Positions 2,684 to 16,632 of a stretch of 64,000 bases of DNA are shown here, piece after piece; positions within the stretch are counted from its first letter, which is position 1; the number at the start of each line of letters is the position of its first letter. A program made the translations under genes and the position numbers. Source of the stretch: Candidatus Darwinibacter acetoxidans (GTDB lineage Bacteria; Bacillota; Limnochordia; Darwinibacteriales; Darwinibacteriaceae); NCBI GenBank assembly GCA_041936745.1, contig JBHGWS010000143.1, positions 179 to 64,178 on the forward strand. The letters are read 5' to 3'. Under the pieces are notes generated by a model. The model saw only the letters and a program-made list of their open reading frames with translations, ran no database searches and was not told where the DNA came from.

Positions 2684-3568
2684 ATGAGTATAGCCATAAT
2701 CGCCAACCCCATCGCCGGACGGGGCCGGGGCGAGAAAACAGCGCATTTGGTAAAACAAATCCTGGCGGAATGGAATGTGGAATTCGAGCTGACTTTTACA
2801 AAATATCACAAACATGCCATAGAATTGGCCGCGGAGGCAAGCCGCCGACATGAAGTCGTGGCTGCGCTGGGTGGAGATGGCACCATCCGCCAGGTCCTGG
2901 AGGGAATTAGGCAGAGCGCTTCCATCCTGGGCGTTATCCCCGGGGGGACGGGCAATGACTATGCCCGCGGCCTTAAAATACCCTTAAGGACAAAAGAAGC
3001 CCTGCAGGTTTTACTCAAGCAGCACACCGCGCCTTTGGATGTGGGTTTGGCCGGGGAAAGAACGTTTGGGGTCTTGGCATCCATCGGCTTTCCCGTCGAT
3101 GTGATCGAATACGTCAATGCGCACCGGGACGGGATTTTTAAAGGGTCCCTGGCAATTGTGGCGGGAGTTGTTTCCACCATCCGCCATTTAAAGACATATC
3201 CCCTGACAATTTCCATAGATGGCAAAACTTATGAAAAAGAGGTAGCGGGGCTTTTTGTTATGAACATGCCTTACGGCGGCGGCGGTTTGAAATTCACCCC
3301 GGCAGCCCACTACAACGATGGCGTTTTTAATGTCTTCATTATAGAGAAAATATCCAAGCTGGAATTAGCCCGCACGCTGCCCAAAGTTTATTCGGGCAGG
3401 CACCTGCCGCACCCGGCCATTACCATCGTCAAGGGCCGGCAGGTAAAACTGACAGGCGATCCCCTCCCGGTCATGCTGGACGGTGATGTTTTCCAGATGG
3501 ACAACCTCTCGGCCGAAATACTGCCGCAGGCATTGAAAGTTATCGTCAAAGAAGCCCCCACCGTTTAA
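2684..3568 (+). CDS. Lipid kinase of the diacylglycerol-kinase catalytic-domain family (YegS/BmrU/DagK-like)
   Basis: 294 aa. Contains GGDGT and GVIPGGTGNDYAR, the DAGK_cat nucleotide-binding signature. RBS AGGAGG 7 nt upstream. Confidence 0.8.
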   Translation: MSIAIIANPIAGRGRGEKTAHLVKQILAEWNVEFELTFTKYHKHAIELAAEASRRHEVVAALGGDGTIRQVLEGIRQSASILGVIPGGTGNDYARGLKIPLRTKEALQVLLKQHTAPLDVGLAGERTFGVLASIGFPVDVIEYVNAHRDGIFKGSLAIVAGVVSTIRHLKTYPLTISIDGKTYEKEVAGLFVMNMPYGGGGLKFTPAAHYNDGVFNVFIIEKISKLELARTLPKVYSGRHLPHPAITIVKGRQVKLTGDPLPVMLDGDVFQMDNLSAEILPQALKVIVKEAPTV

Positions 3569-3582
3569 GGCAGGGGCTTTTT

Positions 3583-4629
3583 TTAGTCTTCAAAAGGATA
3601 CAAAATTATTTTCCCGCTTTGGCCCGCTTTCATCAATTCCAGCCCTTCTTCGATGCGGTTCATGGGCAGCCGGTGTGTAATCAAGGGCGTCAGATCGAGC
3701 CCGCCTTCCAGCAGTGCTTGGGCTTGATACCACGTTTCGTACATTTTCCTGCCGTTGATTCCCAGGACAACTGCTCCTTTAAAGACGATGGCTTCCGCCA
3801 AATTTATGGTGATCGGATCGGAAGGGATTCCTAATAAGGAGGCGGTGCCGCCATTTACTAAGCAGCTGAAAGCGTCGTTGATAGCTTTTTCATTACCGGA
3901 CATTTCCAAAAGCACGTCTATGCCCTGCCCATTTGTAGCCTCGGCAACTTTGGCGCAGAGATCTTCGCTCCGCACATCCACGGCCAAATCCACGCCAAAC
4001 TTACGGGCCAGTTCCAAACGGTAAGGGCTCACATCGCTGACAATCACCTGCCGCGCCCCGGCCCGCTTCACGATTGGAATGGCAGCAAGCCCAATGGGGC
4101 CAACACCCGTAATTAAAACCCTGGCACCGACTAAATCGGCCTCAAAGGCAGTATGCACAGCATTGCCGAAAGGATCCTGGATTGCTGCGATCTCAGGATC
4201 TACATCATAGTCCCACACCCAAATATTTTCATGGGGCACGGTCACGTACTCCGTAAAACAGCCGGCCCGATCCACGCCGATGATTTCAACCCGTTCGCAG
4301 ATGTGGCCGCGGCCTGTTTTGCAAAAACGGCAGACACCGCAGGTAAAATGAGTTTCCACGGAAACGAAGTCTCCTACTTCGACACCCTTCACGCAGGGGC
4401 CCAGTTCGACTACTTCGCCGCAGAACTCATGCCCGAAAACTAATGGGGGCCTGATTCGGCTTTGTGCCCATTGATCCCACTCATAAATATGAACATCGGT
4501 CCCGCAGATGGCACTGGCCTTGACTTTGACCAAAACTTCCCCCGCTTTTGGCTTGGGGACCGGCACCTCAATGATTTCAAGTCCGGGGCCGGGTTTGGTT
4601 TTGGCTACCGCTTTCATGGTTTTTTCCAT
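3583..4629 (-). CDS. tdh: L-threonine 3-dehydrogenase (Zn-dependent MDR/ADH family)
   Basis: 348 aa. AICGTDVHIYEWDQWAQSRI...GHEFCGEVVELG closely resembles the Tdh N-terminal zinc-binding region. Rossmann GVGPIGL also present. RBS AGGGGGATAAGAA then ATG. Confidence 0.85.
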   Translation of the reverse strand: MEKTMKAVAKTKPGPGLEIIEVPVPKPKAGEVLVKVKASAICGTDVHIYEWDQWAQSRIRPPLVFGHEFCGEVVELGPCVKGVEVGDFVSVETHFTCGVCRFCKTGRGHICERVEIIGVDRAGCFTEYVTVPHENIWVWDYDVDPEIAAIQDPFGNAVHTAFEADLVGARVLITGVGPIGLAAIPIVKRAGARQVIVSDVSPYRLELARKFGVDLAVDVRSEDLCAKVAEATNGQGIDVLLEMSGNEKAINDAFSCLVNGGTASLLGIPSDPITINLAEAIVFKGAVVLGINGRKMYETWYQAQALLEGGLDLTPLITHRLPMNRIEEGLELMKAGQSGKIILYPFED

Positions 4630-4760: not shown

Positions 4761-5609
4761 ATGGAGCAATTGGGAATTGTTGGTGCGGGGCCCGGCGGGG
4801 CCGAACTTTTGCGCACTTTTTTGGCCATACCCGGCATAAAAATCATCGGCATTGCCGATCCTAATCCTAACAGCCCGGGAATGAAAATTGCACAGGAACA
4901 CCGCCTTTTTTCAACCGCGGATTACAGGGATTTGGCAGGCATGCCGGGCAAAAAAATGCTGTTTGATGCTACGGGGGTACCTGCGGTGGCCCAAGGCTTG
5001 CGGGAGCTGGCCGATGAGAACACGATTGTGGTCTGCCCCGATACAGCCAGGTTGATTTGGCAGATGGTAGAAGCAAAAGAAGAGGTTAACAAAGCCCTGC
5101 TTGCGGAATCCACAAGTTTATTGTCTTTTATTGAAAGCGGCCTGGAACATTTGGAGGTTTTAAATGACAAACACGGGGCGGCATTGGAAGATACGGTCCG
5201 CCAGATTGAAACCTTGTCCCAAACCACTGCTTCCAGCCACAAGCTTTTACAAGAAACGGAACAAATCATGGCTTTAATTAAAAATGTGGCCGATAAAACG
5301 CGCATTTTAGGCATCAACGCGGCAATAGAATCGGCCCGGGCCGGCGATTTGGGGCGCGGGTTCGGCGTAGTGGCCGATTCCATTCACGAGCTGGCCGCAA
5401 GTTCCGTTGCCTCCGTCCAATCCGTTTCTAAAACGATTGATGCCATTCATGAAGCCCTGCGGGTTATAGGGGAGGGTGTCAACGATTTAGTGATCCGCAT
5501 TACAGACATCGAATCAAACCAAAACACCCTGACGCAGGAGCTGCACACCACCTTGGAAGAAATGATTGAAAGCGCCGAGAAGCTTAAGGTAATAGCCGGC
5601 GAAAAATGA
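4761..5609 (+). CDS. Soluble fusion protein: N-terminal CoA-binding/Rex-like Rossmann domain joined to a C-terminal MCP signalling (hairpin-tip) domain
   Basis: 282 aa with no TM segment. The N-terminus LGIVGAGPGG...KIIGIADPNP...VPAVAQGL...IVVCP fits the CoA_binding/Rex C-terminal domain pattern. The C-terminus RILGINAAIESARAGDLGRGFGVVADSIHELAASS matches the conserved MCP signalling-domain core that contacts CheW/CheA. Confidence 0.6.
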   Translation: MEQLGIVGAGPGGAELLRTFLAIPGIKIIGIADPNPNSPGMKIAQEHRLFSTADYRDLAGMPGKKMLFDATGVPAVAQGLRELADENTIVVCPDTARLIWQMVEAKEEVNKALLAESTSLLSFIESGLEHLEVLNDKHGAALEDTVRQIETLSQTTASSHKLLQETEQIMALIKNVADKTRILGINAAIESARAGDLGRGFGVVADSIHELAASSVASVQSVSKTIDAIHEALRVIGEGVNDLVIRITDIESNQNTLTQELHTTLEEMIESAEKLKVIAGEK

Positions 5610-5610
5610 A

Positions 5611-5645
5611 AATAAAGAAGCAGCCCGCGGGGCTGCTTTAAATTT
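5611..5645. terminator. Bidirectional terminator between the + gene 4761..5609 and the minus-strand tRNA operon
   Basis: Hairpin AAGCAGCCC-GCGG-GGCTGCTT flanked by A-rich sequence upstream and T-rich sequence downstream. Confidence 0.55.
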
Positions 5646-5648
5646 TAA

Positions 5649-5726
5649 TGGGGTGAGTAACCGGATTCGAACCGGCGACCTCCAGGGCCACAACCTGGCG
5701 CTCTAACCAACTGAGCTATACCCACC
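5649..5726 (-). tRNA. tRNA-His (anticodon GTG), with G-1 and an encoded CCA
   Basis: The reverse complement folds as a cloverleaf. Acceptor GUGGGUA/UACUCAC carries an extra 5' G. Anticodon loop TTGTGGC, T-arm GGTTCGAATCC, 3' CCA. Coordinates +/-2. Confidence 0.85.
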
Positions 5727-5734
5727 GCGAGATA

Positions 5735-5810
5735 TGGCGCGCCTGGCAGGAATCGAACCTGCGGCACTCGGATTAGAAGTCCGATGCTCTATCCCCTGAG
5801 CTACAGGCGC
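5735..5810 (-). tRNA. tRNA-Arg (anticodon TCT)
   Basis: Reverse complement GCGCCTGTAGCTCAGGGGATAGAGC...anticodon loop CTTCTAA...GGTTCGATTCC...CCA. Confidence 0.85.
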
Positions 5811-5824
5811 CAAAGGCTTGAAAA

Positions 5825-5898
5825 TGGAGCGGGTGATGAGAATCGAACTCACATAGCCGGCTTGGAAGGCCGGTGCTCTACCATTGAGCTACACCCGC
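5825..5898 (-). tRNA. tRNA-Gly (anticodon TCC)
   Basis: Reverse complement GCGGGTGTAGCTCAATGGTAGAGC...anticodon loop CTTCCAA...GGTTCGATTC...CCA. Confidence 0.85.
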
Positions 5899-5906
5899 TT
5901 AAAAGA

Positions 5907-5984
5907 TGGTCGGGGCGAGAGGATTTGAACCTCCGGCCTCCTGCTCCCAAGGCAGGCGCGCTAGCCAAACTGCGCCACACCCCG
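5907..5984 (-). tRNA. tRNA-Pro (anticodon TGG)
   Basis: Reverse complement CGGGGTGTGGCGCAGTTTGGCTAGCGC...anticodon loop CTTGGGA...GGTTCAAATCC...CCA. Confidence 0.85.
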
Positions 5985-6013
5985 ACGTTTTAACCTCCAA
6001 ACTGACAATGTCA

Positions 6014-6043
6014 ATATTACCATACAAACCTTGCTCCTGTCAA
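6014..6043 (-). promoter_or_regulatory. Putative sigma-A promoter of the tRNA Pro-Gly-Arg-His operon, with an overlapping TGACA-A-TGTCA palindrome
   Basis: Minus strand reads TTGACA, an 18-nt spacer, TAATAT, then about 28 nt to the tRNA-Pro 5' end. On the plus strand the -35 element is at 6038-6043 and the -10 element at 6014-6019. The perfect 11-nt palindrome TGACAATGTCA lies at about 6003-6013, between the -10 element and the tRNA. Confidence 0.45.
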
Positions 6044-6134
6044 CCGAAACTGCCGTATTTAGATCGGTTTGCACCGGGCCGGCAAAAAGCCCGCAAACCT
6101 CAGTCCACGTAGAAAACTGCCGTTTCTCCGCCCC

Positions 6135-6208
6135 TTTTACAGTATATTCATTTCCCTGCCCACAAGTTCGCAGGCTTTTCAGCCCCGGCCGATGCCCTGC
6201 GGTACTGC
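6135..6208 (-). pseudogene. Decayed duplicate of the 3' end of kbl (last ~11 codons plus stop, then further kbl-homologous sequence after a ~50-nt deletion)
   Basis: 6135-6169 (TTTTACAGTATATTCATTTCCCTGCCCACAAGTTC) is near-identical to 7225-7258, the true kbl C-terminus [13 protein letters not shown]-stop. This copy would encode ELVGREMNIL-stop but has an in-frame TGA just upstream. 6180-6208 (CAGCCCCGGCCGATGCCCTGCGGTACTG) resembles kbl 7316-7345. Confidence 0.5.
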
Positions 6209-6264
6209 GCAGCTTCGCACTTAGTTCGCCTTAGGCCGGCAAACGCAAATGTGGAAAACCGGTT

Positions 6265-7050
6265 TTAGGTTAAGGCCTCTGTAATTCGGCCCAGGTGTTC
6301 CACAACCAAGTCAGGTTGAATTCGGGAAGTTTCAAGATCTTTCAATTGGGCTTCACCGCTGAGAACTAAGATGCTTACAATGCCCGCCGCCTGAGCCATA
6401 GCTATATCCGTATAGAGGCGATCGCCGACCATGGCCACTGTTTGGGGCTCCTGCAGGTCGAATTTAGCTTGAATTGCTGCGATCATCTCCGGATACGGTT
6501 TACCTATTATCTTTGCTTCTACGCCGGTGGCGGCGGTGATCAAAGCAGTCATAGAACCGCAGTCCGGGATGGGGCCCTCCGGAGTGGGGCAGTTTAAATC
6601 AGGGTGGGTGGCTATGAAAGGCAGCCCCCGGCGGATGAACTGGCAGGCCAAGCGGAGTTTTTCATAGGTTAAGGTTAAATCAAAACCGAGGACCACTGCT
6701 TTAGGATCCTTGGAGGTAAGCACAAACCCTGCCTCCGTGAATTCTTTTTCTAAAGACGGGGTACCCACTAAGTACAGTTCCCGGGGGTAATTATATTTTT
6801 TTAGATAAAAAATAGTAGCCTGGCCGGCCGTAAAAACCTGATGGGCGTCGATTTCAATCCCCATTTTTTTAAGTTTGTCCACGTAATAGCCGCTGTTTTT
6901 GGAGGAATTGTTGGTCACAAAAATGAAGGATTTTCCTAATTTGCGCATAGTTTCCACAAAGGGAAGCGACCAGGGAAAGAGGCGGTCGCCTAAATAGATG
7001 GTGCCGTCCAGATCGAGTAAGAAAGTTTCAATTGAATGTAATTGTTTCAC
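6265..7050 (-). CDS. HAD-superfamily subfamily IIA hydrolase (NagD/YutF-like sugar-phosphate phosphatase)
   Basis: 261 aa. N-terminal FLLDLDGTIY (HAD motif I, DxD), internal FVTNNS, C-terminal VGDRLYTDIAMAQAAG (motif IV). Confidence 0.8.
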   Translation of the reverse strand: MKQLHSIETFLLDLDGTIYLGDRLFPWSLPFVETMRKLGKSFIFVTNNSSKNSGYYVDKLKKMGIEIDAHQVFTAGQATIFYLKKYNYPRELYLVGTPSLEKEFTEAGFVLTSKDPKAVVLGFDLTLTYEKLRLACQFIRRGLPFIATHPDLNCPTPEGPIPDCGSMTALITAATGVEAKIIGKPYPEMIAAIQAKFDLQEPQTVAMVGDRLYTDIAMAQAAGIVSILVLSGEAQLKDLETSRIQPDLVVEHLGRITEALT

Positions 7051-7125
7051 GGAATTCCTCCCCGCGGATTCGATTCTTGTTTGTTATGTTTGCGACGGGG
7101 TTTTGGGAATTATGGCGCCAATGGC

Positions 7126-7191
7126 TCTTTTAGGGCCCTAAAAGAGCGGGCGGTGGGAATCGTCCCCCGCCCGGCTTTTTCAAGCTCATCC
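7126..7191. terminator. Two adjacent hairpins downstream of kbl forming a bidirectional terminator region
   Basis: Perfect palindrome GCTCTTTTAGGGCCCTAAAAGAGC at 7126-7150, then GCGGGCGG...CCGCCCG followed by a T5 run on the + strand and an A/T tract on the minus strand. Confidence 0.55.
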
Positions 7192-7225
7192 CATTTGGGG
7201 CCGGCAACTGCCCCTGCCACATTTT

Positions 7226-8413
7226 TTACAGTATATCCATTTCCCGGCCCACAAGTTCAAAGATTCTTACCGCTTCGGCCAGCTGCTCTTTAGTGTGGCC
7301 CGCCGTAACCATGCAGCGGACCCGGCCGGTGCCCAGCGGTACTGTCGGGAAAACAATGCCGGAAACAAAGACACCTTTATCCAAAAGCCTTCTGCTAAAT
7401 TCCATGGTCTTGGCTTCATCCCCAATAATCACCGGGGTAATGGGCGTTTGGCTGTTGCCCGTATTAAAGCCTAAAGTGCCTAATTTCTCTTTGAAATAAT
7501 TGGCGTTGGCCCACAGCTTGTCCGTGTATTCCGTGCTTTCCATCAGCATCTTTAGCGCTTCAATGATCGACCCTGCAGCAGACGGCGGCAGTGTTGTGCT
7601 GAATAAAACGGGCCTGGCCCTGTGGTTTAACCACTCGTACATTGTATTGGAGCCCGCCACATAGCCGCCCACAACGCCGATGGCTTTGGAAAGGGTGCCC
7701 ATCGTAAAATCAACCCTACCCTGCAGGCCGAAATGGTCCACGGTGCCCCGGCCCGATTCACCTAAAACACCGGACCCGTGCGCATCGTCTACGTAAGTCA
7801 GCGCCCCGTATTTTTCCGCCAATTCGACAATCTCCGGCAGCGGCGCAATATCGCCGTCCATGCTAAAGACTCCGTCGGTAATGATCAGTACGTTATCGTA
7901 TTTATCCCGTTCTGTCTTCAGAACATCTTCCAGGTGATTAGGGTCCGCGTGCTTGTAGATCTTGCGGTCAGCCCTGCTTAACCTGACGCCGTCAATAATG
8001 GAAGCGTGGTTGAGCTCATCGGATAAAATTAAGTCACCCCGCTCCGTAATTGCTTGGATGGTGCCCATATTGCAGTTAAAGCCGGACTGGTAGATAAAGG
8101 CGGCTTCTTCCCGCTTAAATTCGGCCAACAGCTCTTCTAATTCTTCGTGGATCGCCATATTGCCCACGATGGTCCGAACAGCCCCGGCTCCCGCTCCGTA
8201 CTTTTCGATCGCCGCGATTGCAGCATTTTTTAAGCGGGGATGGTTGGCGAAAGCGAGATAGTTGTTAGAAGACAGGTTGATGACCTTTTTCCCGTTTAAA
8301 ACTGCCGTCGCATCATTGCCGCCTTCCAAAACAGGCAGCCGGCGGTAGACTCCTTCTTTTTTCAACTCTTCAATTTTTTCTCGGAGAAATTTTAATTCGT
8401 GCACATTTCCCAC
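7226..8413 (-). CDS. kbl: 2-amino-3-ketobutyrate CoA ligase (glycine C-acetyltransferase), PLP-dependent
   Basis: 395 aa. Class-II aminotransferase/AONS family with the lysine motif region TLSKAIG. The C-terminus resembles E. coli Kbl. Sits near tdh. Confidence 0.85.
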
Positions 8414-8446: not shown

Positions 8447-9046
8447 TTAAAGGTATCTCTCTAAAATCTCCACAATCTTGCGGGCCGCCAAGCCCCGATG
8501 GCCTATTTTGTTTTTAACTGCGGGCCCCAGTTCCGCAAACGTCTGCCCGTATTCCGGGATTAAAAACAAGGGATCATAACCAAAACCGCCGTCCCCCCGC
8601 GGCTCACAGGCTATCTGCCCGCGGCAGAGCCCTTCTGCGTATTTGACTTCGCCGCCGGGGAAGGCCAAAGCCATCACGCAGCGGAATTGGGCAGCCCTTT
8701 TTTCTTGGGGCAGGCCTTTTAATTCCTCTAAGAGTTTGGCGTTGTTTTTTTGATCACTGCTCGGTTCCCCCGCGTAACGCGCCGAGTGCACGCCCGGCGC
8801 ACCCTTTAAGGCAGCCACTTCCAAGCCCGAGTCATCGCCCAAAGCCATTTCCCCGGCAAAGCGGGCGATTGTCAAAGCCTTTTTCTTGGCGTTTTCCCGA
8901 AAAGTAGCCCCGTCTTCGATAATAGGGGGGTAACTGCCCAGATCATTTAACGATACGACCTGCAGGTTTAAAGCTTTGGTCAGCGCCTTGATCTCCTCTA
9001 TTTTATGTTCGTTATGAGATGCAACCAATAAGCGCCGGGGTTTCAT
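8447..9046 (-). CDS. rdgB: Non-canonical purine NTP pyrophosphatase (dITP/XTP pyrophosphatase, Ham1/RdgB family)
   Basis: 199 aa. Starts [12 protein letters not shown] and contains GDDSGLEV...FGYDPLF, the Ham1 signatures. Overlaps the rph stop by 4 nt. Confidence 0.85.
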
Positions 9047-9783
9047 TGGCTGCCTCCGAATTTTGAAGTTAAATCCCCGACCAAAAGGCTTTTCTGCAGA
9101 TCGATCAGTTCCAAGATGCCTTTTTCTGCCAGATCCATCAGCTTTTCCATCTCGGCGCGCCCAAACGGGCTTTCTTCCGCCGTCCCCTGTATCTCCACTA
9201 TCTTCCCGCTGCCGGTCATGACAACATTAAAATCGGCTTGAGCCCCCGCATCCTCCACATAGCACAGATCTAAAAGGGGCTGGCCTTCCACTAAACCCAT
9301 GCTGATGGCCGCCAGGTAATCCTGCACCCCCGCGGCTCCTTCCACTTTTCTTAAAGCATCGGCTAAAGCGATAAAGGCCCCGGTTATGGCGGCGGTACGA
9401 GTGCCCCCGTCGGCTTGAATAACATCGCAGTCGATCCAAATAGTCCGTTCTCCCAAAGATTTTAAATCGACTACCGACCGCAGGGAACGGCCGATCAGGC
9501 GCTGGATCTCGTGCGTACGCCCGCCAACCCTGCCTCGGGAGGCTTCTCTTTGGTTTCTCTTTTCCGTGGCCCGGGGCAGCATGGAATACTCGGCTGTAAT
9601 CCAGCCAACACCCTGGCCCCGGAGGAAAAAAGGCACTTTAGGTTCAACGCTGGCGGTACAGATCACCTTGGTGTTGCCCACCTCAATCAAAGCGGAACCT
9701 TCAGCATGCATAATGTAATCGCGAGTTATCTGCACCGGCCGCATTTCATCGGCTCGGCGCCCGTCAACTCTTTTGTAACCCAT
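9043..9783 (-). CDS. rph: Ribonuclease PH
   Basis: 246 aa. [13 protein letters not shown]...TRDY...[17 protein letters not shown], the canonical RNase PH N-terminal region. Confidence 0.9.
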
Positions 9784-10358: not shown

Positions 10359-11720
10359 TCATGATTTATTTAAGTTTTCAACAAGTGTTCGGAAATGGGC
10401 GCCGCGGGCCGCAAAACTCTCGTATTGATCGTAGCTGGCACAGGCCGGTGATAAAAGTACCACATCACCGGGCAGAGCCTCTTTGGCCGCAAGTTTAACG
10501 GCCCTGTCTAAAGTCTCTGCCATCACCAGGGGGAAAGCCCCGTATTTTTCCACCGCTTTTTTTATTTGCGGCGCGGTATACCCGATCAAAAGTAACTTCT
10601 TCACCCGGCAGTGGATCGCCTTTCCCAACTCATCAAAAGAAAGTTTTTTATCCGATCCGCCCGCAATCAAGATGATGGGGGCCTGCAGCGAACGGAGAGC
10701 CGTGATTGTCCTTTGGGGGGTAGTGGCAATGGAGTCATTATAGTATTTGACGCCGTTTTTGCTGGCGATCAATTCCAGGCGGTGGGGCACCCCGGGGAAA
10801 ACCCGCCCCGCTTCTCGGATTGACTCCCAATCGGCGCCAATTAAATGGGCCATGATTGCCGCTGCCAAAAAATTAGCCGCGTTATGCGGGCCCAAGAGGC
10901 TCAATTTGGCCGCAGGCCCTAAGTCAACCGTACCGTTTTCGTCCCGGTAAAATAGATCGCCGCCTTTTAAATAGGCGCCTTTTTCAACTTCCGCTTCTAG
11001 GCTGAAGAAATAAACTCGGCCTTTGGCCTCTTTCGCCATTTGGCGGGTGATTTTATCATCGTAGTTAAAGATCGCAAAATCTCCCGGGCTTTGGTGGCGG
11101 TAGATTTCACGCTTGGCCTCGATATAATTTGCCATGTTTTGGTGGACATCCAGGTGGTTCTCACTAATATTAGTAAGAAGGGCCCCGTGGGGGCTGCTGC
11201 CCAACCGCTCCAATTGAAAACTGGAAAGCTCCAGCACAACCGAATCTCCCGGCCCCGCCTTTTCTATCTCCGTAATCAGCGGTGTGCCGATATTGCCGCC
11301 TAAAAAAGGCGCCAATGCCGCCTGCCGCAGCATTTCGCCGATTAAAGCCGTGACAGTTGTCTTGCCGCTGCTGCCGGTTATGGCGTAAATTGGCGCTTCA
11401 CTGTAGCGGAAAACGAGAGCAATTTCGCTTAAAAAATCTAATCCCTTTAACTCAGGCAGATGTTTGGGAATACCCGGAGTTAGAAAAACAGCGTCATAGC
11501 CTGTCAAGCCGCGCAAATAGCCGGGCCCCAGAATTAGTTCAACTCCCAGAGCCCGCAGTTTTTGCACCTGATCTTTCAATTCAGCAGCTGTTTTTTGATC
11601 CCTGCCGAACACTTGTGCACCCTTGTTTTGTAAAAACTCAATCAGGGCCATATTGCTGACCCCTAAGCCCACGACTGCAACTTTTTTCCCCTGCCACTCC
11701 TCATATATTTCTTTTCGCAT
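10359..11720 (-). CDS. murD: UDP-N-acetylmuramoyl-L-alanine--D-glutamate ligase
   Basis: Mur ligase motifs VAVVGLGVSN and ITGSSGKTTVT. The track ORF extends to 11825, but the probable start is the internal ATG at 11720-11718 (MRKEIYEE...), which shares one nucleotide with the murI stop (TAATG). Confidence 0.85.
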   Translation of the reverse strand: MRKEIYEEWQGKKVAVVGLGVSNMALIEFLQNKGAQVFGRDQKTAAELKDQVQKLRALGVELILGPGYLRGLTGYDAVFLTPGIPKHLPELKGLDFLSEIALVFRYSEAPIYAITGSSGKTTVTALIGEMLRQAALAPFLGGNIGTPLITEIEKAGPGDSVVLELSSFQLERLGSSPHGALLTNISENHLDVHQNMANYIEAKREIYRHQSPGDFAIFNYDDKITRQMAKEAKGRVYFFSLEAEVEKGAYLKGGDLFYRDENGTVDLGPAAKLSLLGPHNAANFLAAAIMAHLIGADWESIREAGRVFPGVPHRLELIASKNGVKYYNDSIATTPQRTITALRSLQAPIILIAGGSDKKLSFDELGKAIHCRVKKLLLIGYTAPQIKKAVEKYGAFPLVMAETLDRAVKLAAKEALPGDVVLLSPACASYDQYESFAARGAHFRTLVENLNKS

Positions 11721-12505
11721 TATGCTTTCACTCCCGGCATTCGGTGCAGTTTCACTGGGGGGATCTCCCCGCCCAAAAGTTTTTCCGCCGTAGATTGGAA
11801 TTTGGCGGGCTCCGCACTTACCCAAAATTCGCTGCTGCCCGCGGCCTGCAGCGAATTAAAGCTGCAGAACCGCTCTTTTACTTCCAAGGCCAAAGCCAAA
11901 GCGGGATCCACAATCTTAACATTACCGGCCAGGCGGGCAATTGCTTTGCTTAAAAAAGGGTAGTGCGTGCAGCCTAAAAGCAAGGTATCTATGCCCGCGG
12001 CAAGTAAAGGGGCTAAATAAAGTGCCAGGGCTTCTTCGACCTCCTGCCCTTCGATCAGGCCTTCTTCCACTAAAGGCACCAGCTTGGCGGCGCTGACAGC
12101 CGTAATTGACCAATCGGGGCGCAGCTTTTTCAGGCGCTGTTGGTACACGCCGCTTTTCACCGTTGCCGTAGTGGCCAAAAGGCCCACCCGGCCCCGGGCC
12201 GCGGGCAGAGTGGCCCGCAAGCCCGCCTCGATTATACCAATGACGGGTAGAGGCGCTTGATCCTGTACGGCGGGTAAAACGACTGCGCTCGAGGTGTTGC
12301 AGGCCATTACTACCGCCTGCACTTGTTTCTTCTCGAAAAAGCGATAAATCTGCCAAAAATAACTCTGCAGTTGGGCGGGGCTTTTTTCGCCGTAGGGCAT
12401 GTGGGCGGTATCGCCGAAATAAATTAGTTTGGCGTTGACTACGCCCCGCAGCTTACGCCAAACTGACAGCCCTCCCAAGCCTGAATCATATATTCCTATT
12501 ATCAA
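11720..12505 (-). CDS. murI: Glutamate racemase
   Basis: Asp/Glu racemase signature IGIYDSGLGGLSV. The probable TTG start at about 12505 is preceded by GGGAGGA. The upstream extension in the track would overlap gerM. Confidence 0.8.
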   Translation of the reverse strand: MIIGIYDSGLGGLSVWRKLRGVVNAKLIYFGDTAHMPYGEKSPAQLQSYFWQIYRFFEKKQVQAVVMACNTSSAVVLPAVQDQAPLPVIGIIEAGLRATLPAARGRVGLLATTATVKSGVYQQRLKKLRPDWSITAVSAAKLVPLVEEGLIEGQEVEEALALYLAPLLAAGIDTLLLGCTHYPFLSKAIARLAGNVKIVDPALALALEVKERFCSFNSLQAAGSSEFWVSAEPAKFQSTAEKLLGGEIPPVKLHRMPGVKA

Positions 12506-16282: not shown

Positions 16283-16632
16283 GGGGGTGAATTAGTTTCG
16301 ACGTGGGTAGGATGAGCATCAGAAGCGAGCCGAGGTCCCCAATGCCTCGTTAAAAGTGGGATTTAATTTAACTGCAAACAATAATTACGCTTTAGCTGCT
16401 TAGATCGGCTAACGTCCCTTGTTTCTCCGTCCGTTAGAAACAAGACCGACGTCAAATTACGGACTACCCTTTTGGCGCCGCCCGGAGCCGAGATGGGGAA
16501 ACTTACGGGCTGGTTCATTCTTCAACTGGCTGCAGAGTAGTCGGATGAACGAGAATTAGACTGCAGCTGCGCTCGGAGATGCTGGTGTGATTTCACTTGC
16601 GGACAGCGGTGCAACTCCGCTCACCTCCACCA
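16283..16632 (+). ncRNA. ssrA: tmRNA (transfer-messenger RNA, SsrA). The tag reading frame encodes ANNNYALAA then stop.
   Basis: 5' GGGGGTGAATTAGTTTCGACGTGGG fits the tmRNA consensus (GGGG..GUUUCGACG.GGG). The tag ORF GCA AAC AAT AAT TAC GCT TTA GCT GCT TAG is at about 16375-16404. The 3' tRNA-like end GGACAGCGGTGCAACTCCGCTCACCTCCACCA includes the T-arm and CCA. It follows smpB, as is usual. Confidence 0.85.

Follow-up and report, generated by a model that had tools for sequence, protein, structure and literature searches.

The 64,000-nucleotide stretch of DNA analysed here (the window), assigned to a MAG of an uncultured member of the Bacillota (GCA_012842125.1), contains the last bases of kbl, the gene for glycine C-acetyltransferase, twice: once at the end of the intact gene and once on the far side of a HAD-IIA family phosphatase gene (HAD), upstream of the promoter of a tRNA operon. 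The question raised by this arrangement is whether the second copy is a scar left by inserted DNA, the relic of a second kbl or an element kept by selection and, if it is a scar, what entered and how. An initial annotation, made from the letters alone, had read it as a decayed, non-coding duplicate of the kbl 3' terminus which marks the entry of HAD, possibly together with the tRNA cluster, between kbl and tdh. The duplicate and the HAD insertion are borne out below; the parts of that account which concern the tRNAs and tdh are not. In the direction of transcription, and all on the minus strand, the order is murD, a fumarase C-terminal-domain gene, rph, rdgB, kbl, a spacer, HAD, the remnant (the second copy of the kbl end), a further spacer, the promoter and the tRNAs (Table 1).

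Table 1. Features of the kbl–HAD–tRNA region and its surroundings in window coordinates
Feature	Positions	Strand	Description
lipK	2684–3568	+	Lipid kinase gene
tdh	3583–4629	-	NF003808, 482 bits
MCP-signalling-domain gene	4761–5609	+	Beyond the tRNAs
tRNA operon	5649–5984	-	Pro(TGG)-Gly(TCC)-Arg(TCT)-His(GTG); same four genes in the same order in L077
tRNA operon promoter	6014–6043	-	TTGACA, 18 nt, TAATAT, extended -10 TG; 10/12 match
Ancestral kbl-to-tRNA-promoter spacer	6044–6134	-	Colinear with L069; still attached to the remnant
Remnant (D2)	6135–6207	-	Dead copy (73 bases) of the final 121 nt of kbl: block 6135–6169, filler 6170–6183, block 6184–6207
Cassette X	6208–7223	-	1016 nt: structured spacer with terminator-like hairpins, HAD and a 57-nt tail; absent from the L069/L080 site
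HAD	6265–7050	-	HAD-IIA family phosphatase gene, 261 aa, GTG start after GGGGAGG; TIGR01460, 150.8 bits (cut-off 100.15); Hydrolase_6, Hydrolase_like
Terminator-like structures after the live kbl stop	7124–7180	-	GC-rich hairpin 7140–7180, then CUCUUUU; perfect 24-nt palindrome 7124–7147
Live copy of the duplicated segment (D1)	7224–7344	-	Last 39 kbl codons, TAA stop and 2 nt
kbl	7226–8413	-	Glycine C-acetyltransferase, 395 aa, intact; NF005394, 508.8 bits (cut-off 460); TIGR01825, 596 bits
rdgB	8447–9046	-	
rph	9043–9783	-	
murD	10359–11825	-	
tmRNA gene	16283–16632	+	Full-length; Rfam RF00023, 169 bits

The second copy of the kbl 3' end

The remnant repeats the end of kbl directly, in two blocks. 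The first matches 7224–7258 at 33 of 35 positions and comprises the final ten codons of kbl, the TAA stop and 2 nt further; the second matches 7321–7344 at 22 of 24. The offsets between the copies are 1089 nt for the first block and 1137 nt for the second, which leaves D2 48 nt shorter than D1: 62 nt of kbl (7259–7320) correspond to a 14-nt filler that is not significantly kbl-like (1361/2000 shuffles). The initial annotation had placed the first block correctly on the remnant side and began it one base too late on the kbl side, at 7225 rather than 7224. The further kbl-like sequence that it described after a deletion of about 50 nt is also present, although with narrower limits (6184–6207) and with the gap resolved as a replacement rather than a simple deletion. 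No similarity to kbl continues past 6135 or 6207: the 50 nt that follow the stop and the 57 nt preceding the repeat both behave like shuffled sequence (497/2000 and 398/2000 shuffles, respectively). The limits of homology are sharp, at 6207/7344 in one direction and, in the other, 2 nt beyond the stop codon, and the duplicated unit is therefore 121 nt long.

Neither block occurs elsewhere in the 64-kb window at three or fewer mismatches, and the chance expectation of each is 0.00 (100 dinucleotide shuffles). Gapped local alignment of 5985–6264 with kbl gives a score of 79.5, compared with 22.8 ± 2.8 and a maximum of 37 for shuffled sequence, and the repeat is not low in complexity; chance or low-complexity similarity is rejected on the shuffles and the alignment score. 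An assembly artefact is likewise rejected, since six contigs of the same species that were assembled independently (L051–L055 and L075) carry this arrangement at 99.9–100% identity. Collapse of a de Bruijn graph in particular is rejected because no stretch of 31 nt or more is shared exactly by both copies.

Translated in the frame of kbl, the remnant reads CAVPQGIGRG*KACELVGREMNIL*, with the in-frame TGA that had been noted initially. It has no start codon, no ORF was called in it on the minus strand, and it holds the last 39 codons of kbl minus 16. The remnant thus combines significant, colinear, same-strand similarity to kbl with an inability to encode a product, as is characteristic of a gene-fragment pseudogene.

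The locus in related lineages

The orthologous locus was found in three states. In the first, state A (L076, L077 and L078, retrieved with the conserved tRNA promoter sequence), rph and rdgB are followed directly by the same promoter and the tRNA operon, and kbl, HAD, the MCP-like gene and tdh are all absent. L077 (positions 1–2649) shows the bare backbone, rph-rdgB-tRNAs-lipK, with lipK directly after the Pro-Gly-Arg-His tRNAs. In state B (L069, from SRR34423824, and L080, from ERR7015689), kbl leads into the same promoter and tRNA-Pro, and the locus has a single kbl end and no HAD. The kbl of L069 is 91% identical to that of the window at the amino-acid level and 81% at the nucleotide level, the 3' end of rdgB lies upstream of it, and 102 nt separate its stop codon from the TTGACA promoter; the kbl of L080 is 89% identical (amino acids), with a spacer of about 135 nt, and its kbl end and spacer are quite different. 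These two are the only empty-site lineages found, and both lie on short contigs (1.4–1.7 kb). State C is that of the window, rdgB, kbl, HAD, remnant and tRNAs. The promoter sequence is conserved in L069, L076–L078 and L080.

From 6207 down to 5985 the window is colinear with L069 from the kbl 3' end into tRNA-Pro (score 142). The remnant consequently sits exactly where the kbl end sat before the insertion, and the outer junction between D2 and the spacer is ancestral, as is that between the 5' part of kbl and D1. In the window the -35 hexamer (6043–6038) lies downstream of the remnant, 93 nt after its stop codon, in agreement with the initial placement of the remnant just upstream of the tRNA promoter. 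Two orthologous loci that lack the insert and carry one copy of the duplicated sequence, with kbl running directly into the tRNA promoter, support the early reading of the repeat as the mark of a HAD insertion.

The further suggestion that the tRNA cluster had entered with HAD is contradicted by the lineages in state A, where the cluster stands beside rdgB with the same promoter (L076–L078) and, in L077, between rdgB and lipK. Judged by gene order across these sequences, the tRNA operon is the ancestral anchor and the oldest feature of the locus. Nor does the background assumption of the initial annotation, that kbl and tdh are normally adjacent, hold here: among 50 kbl relatives, most lack a tdh within 8 kb, and the six in which one is present have the order tdh–kbl. 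Relative to L077, tdh and the MCP-like gene are themselves extras on the other side of the tRNAs. Compared with that backbone, kbl (and then HAD) occupies the slot upstream of the tRNA promoter and the MCP-like gene with tdh that downstream of tRNA-His, and since L077 lacks both kbl and tdh, either both flanks of the tRNA operon gained genes or the relatives lost them.

An alternative account of states B and C is that HAD was lost secondarily in L069 and L080. This is possible in principle, as recombination between the two repeats could excise HAD precisely, but two losses would be needed, and such a history would not change what the remnant is.

It is improbable that the remnant is the last piece of a complete second kbl that had stood between HAD and the tRNAs, whether as a tandem paralogue or as a resident gene displaced by incoming kbl-HAD DNA, and was almost entirely deleted. 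A second kbl would explain why the remnant keeps the ancestral position relative to the tRNA promoter and retains ancestral nucleotides. Nothing kbl-like is found upstream of 6207, however, where just 57 non-kbl-like nucleotides remain before the HAD stop, the continuity of rdgB and kbl at the live copy matches L069, and the deletion would have to end exactly at the 3' flank of HAD. More generally, two ancestral outer junctions are the signature of a duplicative insertion and not of tandem duplication followed by deletion; the latter is disfavoured because the deletion would have to restore the old junction exactly.

Selective retention of the remnant, as a terminator or attenuator of HAD/kbl or as a regulatory site upstream of the tRNA operon, is extremely improbable. 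Its position between a gene end and a strong promoter is what such an element would occupy, over the terminal 35 nt of kbl the remnant and L069 are almost the same, and a 116-nt sub-segment (6075–6190) folds with z = -2.81. Against this, the duplicated element is not conserved, the relatives in state B having one kbl end only; the kbl end and spacer of L080 differ as described, and L076–L078 use the same promoter without any kbl sequence. Folding of 6044–6140, 6125–6270 and 6060–6209 is no better than that of shuffled sequence (z = +0.75, +0.28 and -1.10, respectively), and a search against Rfam 15 at the gathering score gave no family match in 6000–6264, the matches in the window being the four tRNAs and the tmRNA only. 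The long hairpin that could be drawn within 6075–6190, between the filler and the downstream spacer, is rejected as a product of chance: 213 of 300 shuffles contain an inverted repeat as good or better, and z falls to -1.10 in a 150-nt frame. An intrinsic terminator or attenuator was not recognized in the remnant, and the feature is absent from the relatives. The remnant is a non-functional, decayed scar, a pseudogene fragment rather than a regulatory RNA.

Three further observations concern kbl itself. In the kbl-less relatives the -35 hexamer of the tRNA promoter falls inside the last codons of rdgB (L076 150–330, L077 1400–1560, L078 40–200), so that an insertion of kbl would have needed a remodelled rdgB 3' end. 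The kbl protein of the window is 76–84% identical to the kbl proteins of Tissierellia and other low-G+C Clostridia. Its closest relatives (87–91%) are spread over at least four gene neighbourhoods, which suggests that kbl itself moves between contexts in these lineages.

The cassette and its possible route of entry

The DNA between the two copies (cassette X) contains HAD as its sole gene, with a ribosome-binding site of its own. Its spacer between kbl and HAD (175 nt) is strongly structured, with z = -2.96 and none of 200 shuffles folding as well (7090–7228); the palindrome in it reads GCTCTTTTAGGGCCCTAAAAGAGC, and the GC-rich hairpin is terminator-like on both strands. The insert thus brings a terminator-like structure of its own, placed immediately behind the live kbl stop. 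The initial annotation had proposed base composition as a check on HAD, and its G+C content (0.481) is indeed the lowest among the 55 ORFs of the window (0.526 ± 0.021; z = -2.2). The GC skew of its coding strand is negative, whereas that of nearly all neighbouring genes is positive. This composition is consistent with a recent arrival or with a former location on the other replication strand. An 18-mer at 7062–7079 that resembles a tRNA T-arm is treated as chance: it is 83% complementary to tRNA-Arg, and no tRNA was called there.

The nearest HAD homologue among 5.8 billion proteins is 76% identical, and source records label the HAD relatives Firmicutes or Limnochordia. Homologues at 73–75% identity have other, unrelated genes around them, such as those for an Na+/H+ exchanger or AP-endonuclease-2, and no kbl in the vicinity, and no HAD homologue lies within 8 kb of kbl in any of the 50 kbl relatives. 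Within the window, neither a second copy of kbl or HAD nor a 'native' HAD locus was found. The non-coding ends of the cassette have no similarity to the flanks of HAD homologues or to the kbl-downstream regions of relatives. Plasmid and phage records gave no close match (best protein identity 47%; one 140-nt phage match at 72%), and a plasmid or phage origin of the cassette has no support. The insert encodes no integrase, recombinase or transposase, and no terminal inverted repeats link the ends of 6208–7223.

Of the two origins that had been offered initially for the repeat, a target duplication or a recombination footprint, the first is set aside in its transposon sense. Duplications made by a transposase are typically 2–14 bp long, and the element that makes them has terminal inverted repeats and a transposase. 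The kbl locus resembles a transposon or insertion sequence in that a direct repeat of the target flanks the insert, but the repeat is 121 nt long and both the transposase and the terminal inverted repeats are missing.

The reading that we consider very likely is that a cassette of about 1.0 kb, made up of the terminator and HAD, was inserted behind kbl and duplicated the last 121 nt of the gene, the downstream copy of which then decayed. In the ancestor, kbl would have led straight into the spacer and promoter of the Pro-Gly-Arg-His tRNA operon. Entry of about 1.0 kb of DNA with a terminator and one HAD-IIA phosphatase gene at the kbl end would have given the order kbl 5' part, D1, terminator-HAD, D2, old spacer and tRNA promoter. 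D1 would keep kbl intact and remain under selection, and D2, with neither start codon nor function, would have been free to decay, with four substitutions in the retained blocks and the change of 62 nt to 14 nt creating the in-frame TGA. The timing of the insertion is weakly constrained by the 59 retained nucleotides.

Of this account, the duplication with its limits, the empty site in two related lineages and the ancestral standing of the tRNA operon are shown, and the mechanism is inferred. As to the latter, we tentatively favour recombination of the RecA type with incoming DNA that carried a kbl 3' end joined to the cassette, at somewhat less than even probability. This could have taken place by a single crossover of a circular molecule within the 121-nt homology (Campbell type) or through homology anchored in kbl on the left, combined with an illegitimate join on the right-hand side; both routes would rebuild kbl and displace the resident end downstream. 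[quoted passage not shown] The kbl case is like these in being integrase-free and, on the preferred mechanism, homology-anchored; its direct duplication exceeds about 100 bp and lies inside the experimental range (PMC3240628), with both outer junctions colinear with L069. It differs in that those were laboratory events with a defined donor, whereas the kbl event is read back from a fixed natural scar.

The substitutions in the two copies bear on this choice. Over the 59 retained nucleotides D1 and D2 differ at four positions, and they differ from L069 at seven and six, respectively; in the terminal 35 nt the remnant differs from the kbl end of L069 at two positions and the live copy at four. 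At both terminal-block differences the remnant agrees with L069 and the live copy is derived (CGG and GAT); the codon that is Asn or Lys in kbl relatives, for instance, is AAT in the remnant and GAT in the live copy. One position of the inner block is derived in the remnant (ATC where a Thr codon is universal). A crossover within the repeat, between copies that differed slightly, would fit these observations, and with two polarisable sites this is only a hint.

Less probable, though still a serious candidate, is a one-step templated or staggered-break insertion, in which no incoming kbl is needed and the repeat amounts to a long target-site duplication. In the templated version a replication fork or broken end would leave after the kbl stop, copy about 1 kb of ectopic template and re-enter 121 nt upstream; in the other version a break with a 121-nt stagger would capture a fragment and be filled in around it. 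Insertion of this kind accounts for the topology and the ancestral outer junctions as well as RecA-type recombination does, and the D1 and D2 blocks are 92–94% identical, as expected for copies of one resident sequence. No donor with adjacent kbl, terminator and HAD was found among the 50 kbl relatives, the HAD relatives or the metagenome matches, and kbl has no mosaic break relative to L069, its identity being 0.73–0.88 per 99 nt and 0.79 in the last such segment. Both results speak against the preferred mechanism. A foreign 3' part of kbl is rejected on this flat profile, nothing showing D1 to be foreign. On the other side, the second copy of the cassette that a template would leave is not visible, the nearest HAD homologue in the proteins searched being that at 76%. 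Long target duplications of the templated or staggered kind are documented mostly in eukaryotes. RecA-type recombination and templated insertion cannot be separated with the present data, and the stop of the duplication just 2 nt past the stop codon is a boundary predicted by no mechanism considered.

In anatomy the closest parallel is the icd/icdC pair that E. coli K-12 carries at its cryptic prophage e14 (Hill, Gray & Brody, 1989; described in PMC13626634). There an intact metabolic gene continues into an insert from which it receives its 3' end, a short pseudogene beyond the insert repeats that 3' terminus directly, and recombination between the repeats can remove the insert, all features with a counterpart at the kbl locus. 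A site-specific mobile element that used the kbl 3' end as its attachment site in this way, and has since been reduced to HAD, is nevertheless very improbable. It would account for the kbl 3' end at both ends of the insert, with kbl full length and above the equivalog cut-off, and for ancestral states in the remnant with derived ones in the live end. The e14 prophage, however, is 15 kb long, encodes a site-specific recombinase of its own and excises upon SOS induction (PMC13626634); the insert at kbl is 1.0 kb long and has one phosphatase gene, no integrase, recombinase or other element gene and no sign of mobility. It has no relation to phage or plasmid records, homologues of HAD at other sites are ordinary chromosomal genes without kbl fragments around them, and the loss of all but one gene and the two repeats would have to be assumed in addition.

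A parallel in process is the C-terminal displacement known from rhs loci and T6SS effector loci (Jackson et al., 2009, cited in PMC5361080), where an incoming module recombines by way of the conserved upstream part of a gene and the old 3' end, shifted downstream, persists there as an orphan. In those loci variable toxin tips and immunity genes are swapped again and again under diversifying selection, whereas at kbl both ends are the same sequence, the gene encodes a housekeeping enzyme and a single displacement is seen.

Scars of this type are well known, and the kbl scar is an ordinary one that opens no new question. It is a base-resolved, dated example of the addition of a single gene to a bacterial chromosome without recognizable mobile-element machinery, and one natural data point for integrase-free duplicative insertion. 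The order of events at the locus is fixed by it, the tRNA operon being old, kbl coming before HAD and HAD last. For annotation, the remnant should be treated as a pseudogene fragment, and kbl, HAD and tdh should not be taken as one operon.

A broader reading, which we regard as improbable, is that the stretch between a gene end and the tRNA promoter acts as a recurrent landing pad on which single metabolic genes are stacked, kbl behind rdgB and HAD behind kbl. If it were true, such a pad would work without an integrase and be anchored by homology, with the 3' end of the upstream gene rebuilt each time; it would extend 'C-terminal displacement' from toxin loci to ordinary enzyme genes, with the remnant as its first visible footprint.

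The far flank of the tRNA operon

On the other side of the tRNAs, no 3' fragment of tRNA-His was found that could mark an island boundary in the stretch holding the MCP-like gene and tdh. The products of kbl and tdh carry out two steps of the same threonine-to-glycine pathway, and their genes stand on opposite sides of the tRNA operon. The MCP-like gene, divergent from tdh, encodes a soluble protein of 282 aa, of which the N-terminal part (about 135 aa) has no Pfam match and contains a GAGPGG motif. In L056/L057 a 278-aa MCP-domain protein is encoded divergently beside kbl (L056 4873–5709). A conserved MCP-like partner of threonine-catabolic genes was considered and rejected, BLASTP similarity being confined to the signalling domain (40% over 160 aa). 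Between the stop codon of the MCP-like gene and tRNA-His, positions 5617–5639 form a bidirectional terminator-like hairpin (10 bp, six of them GC) that could serve both convergent transcription units.
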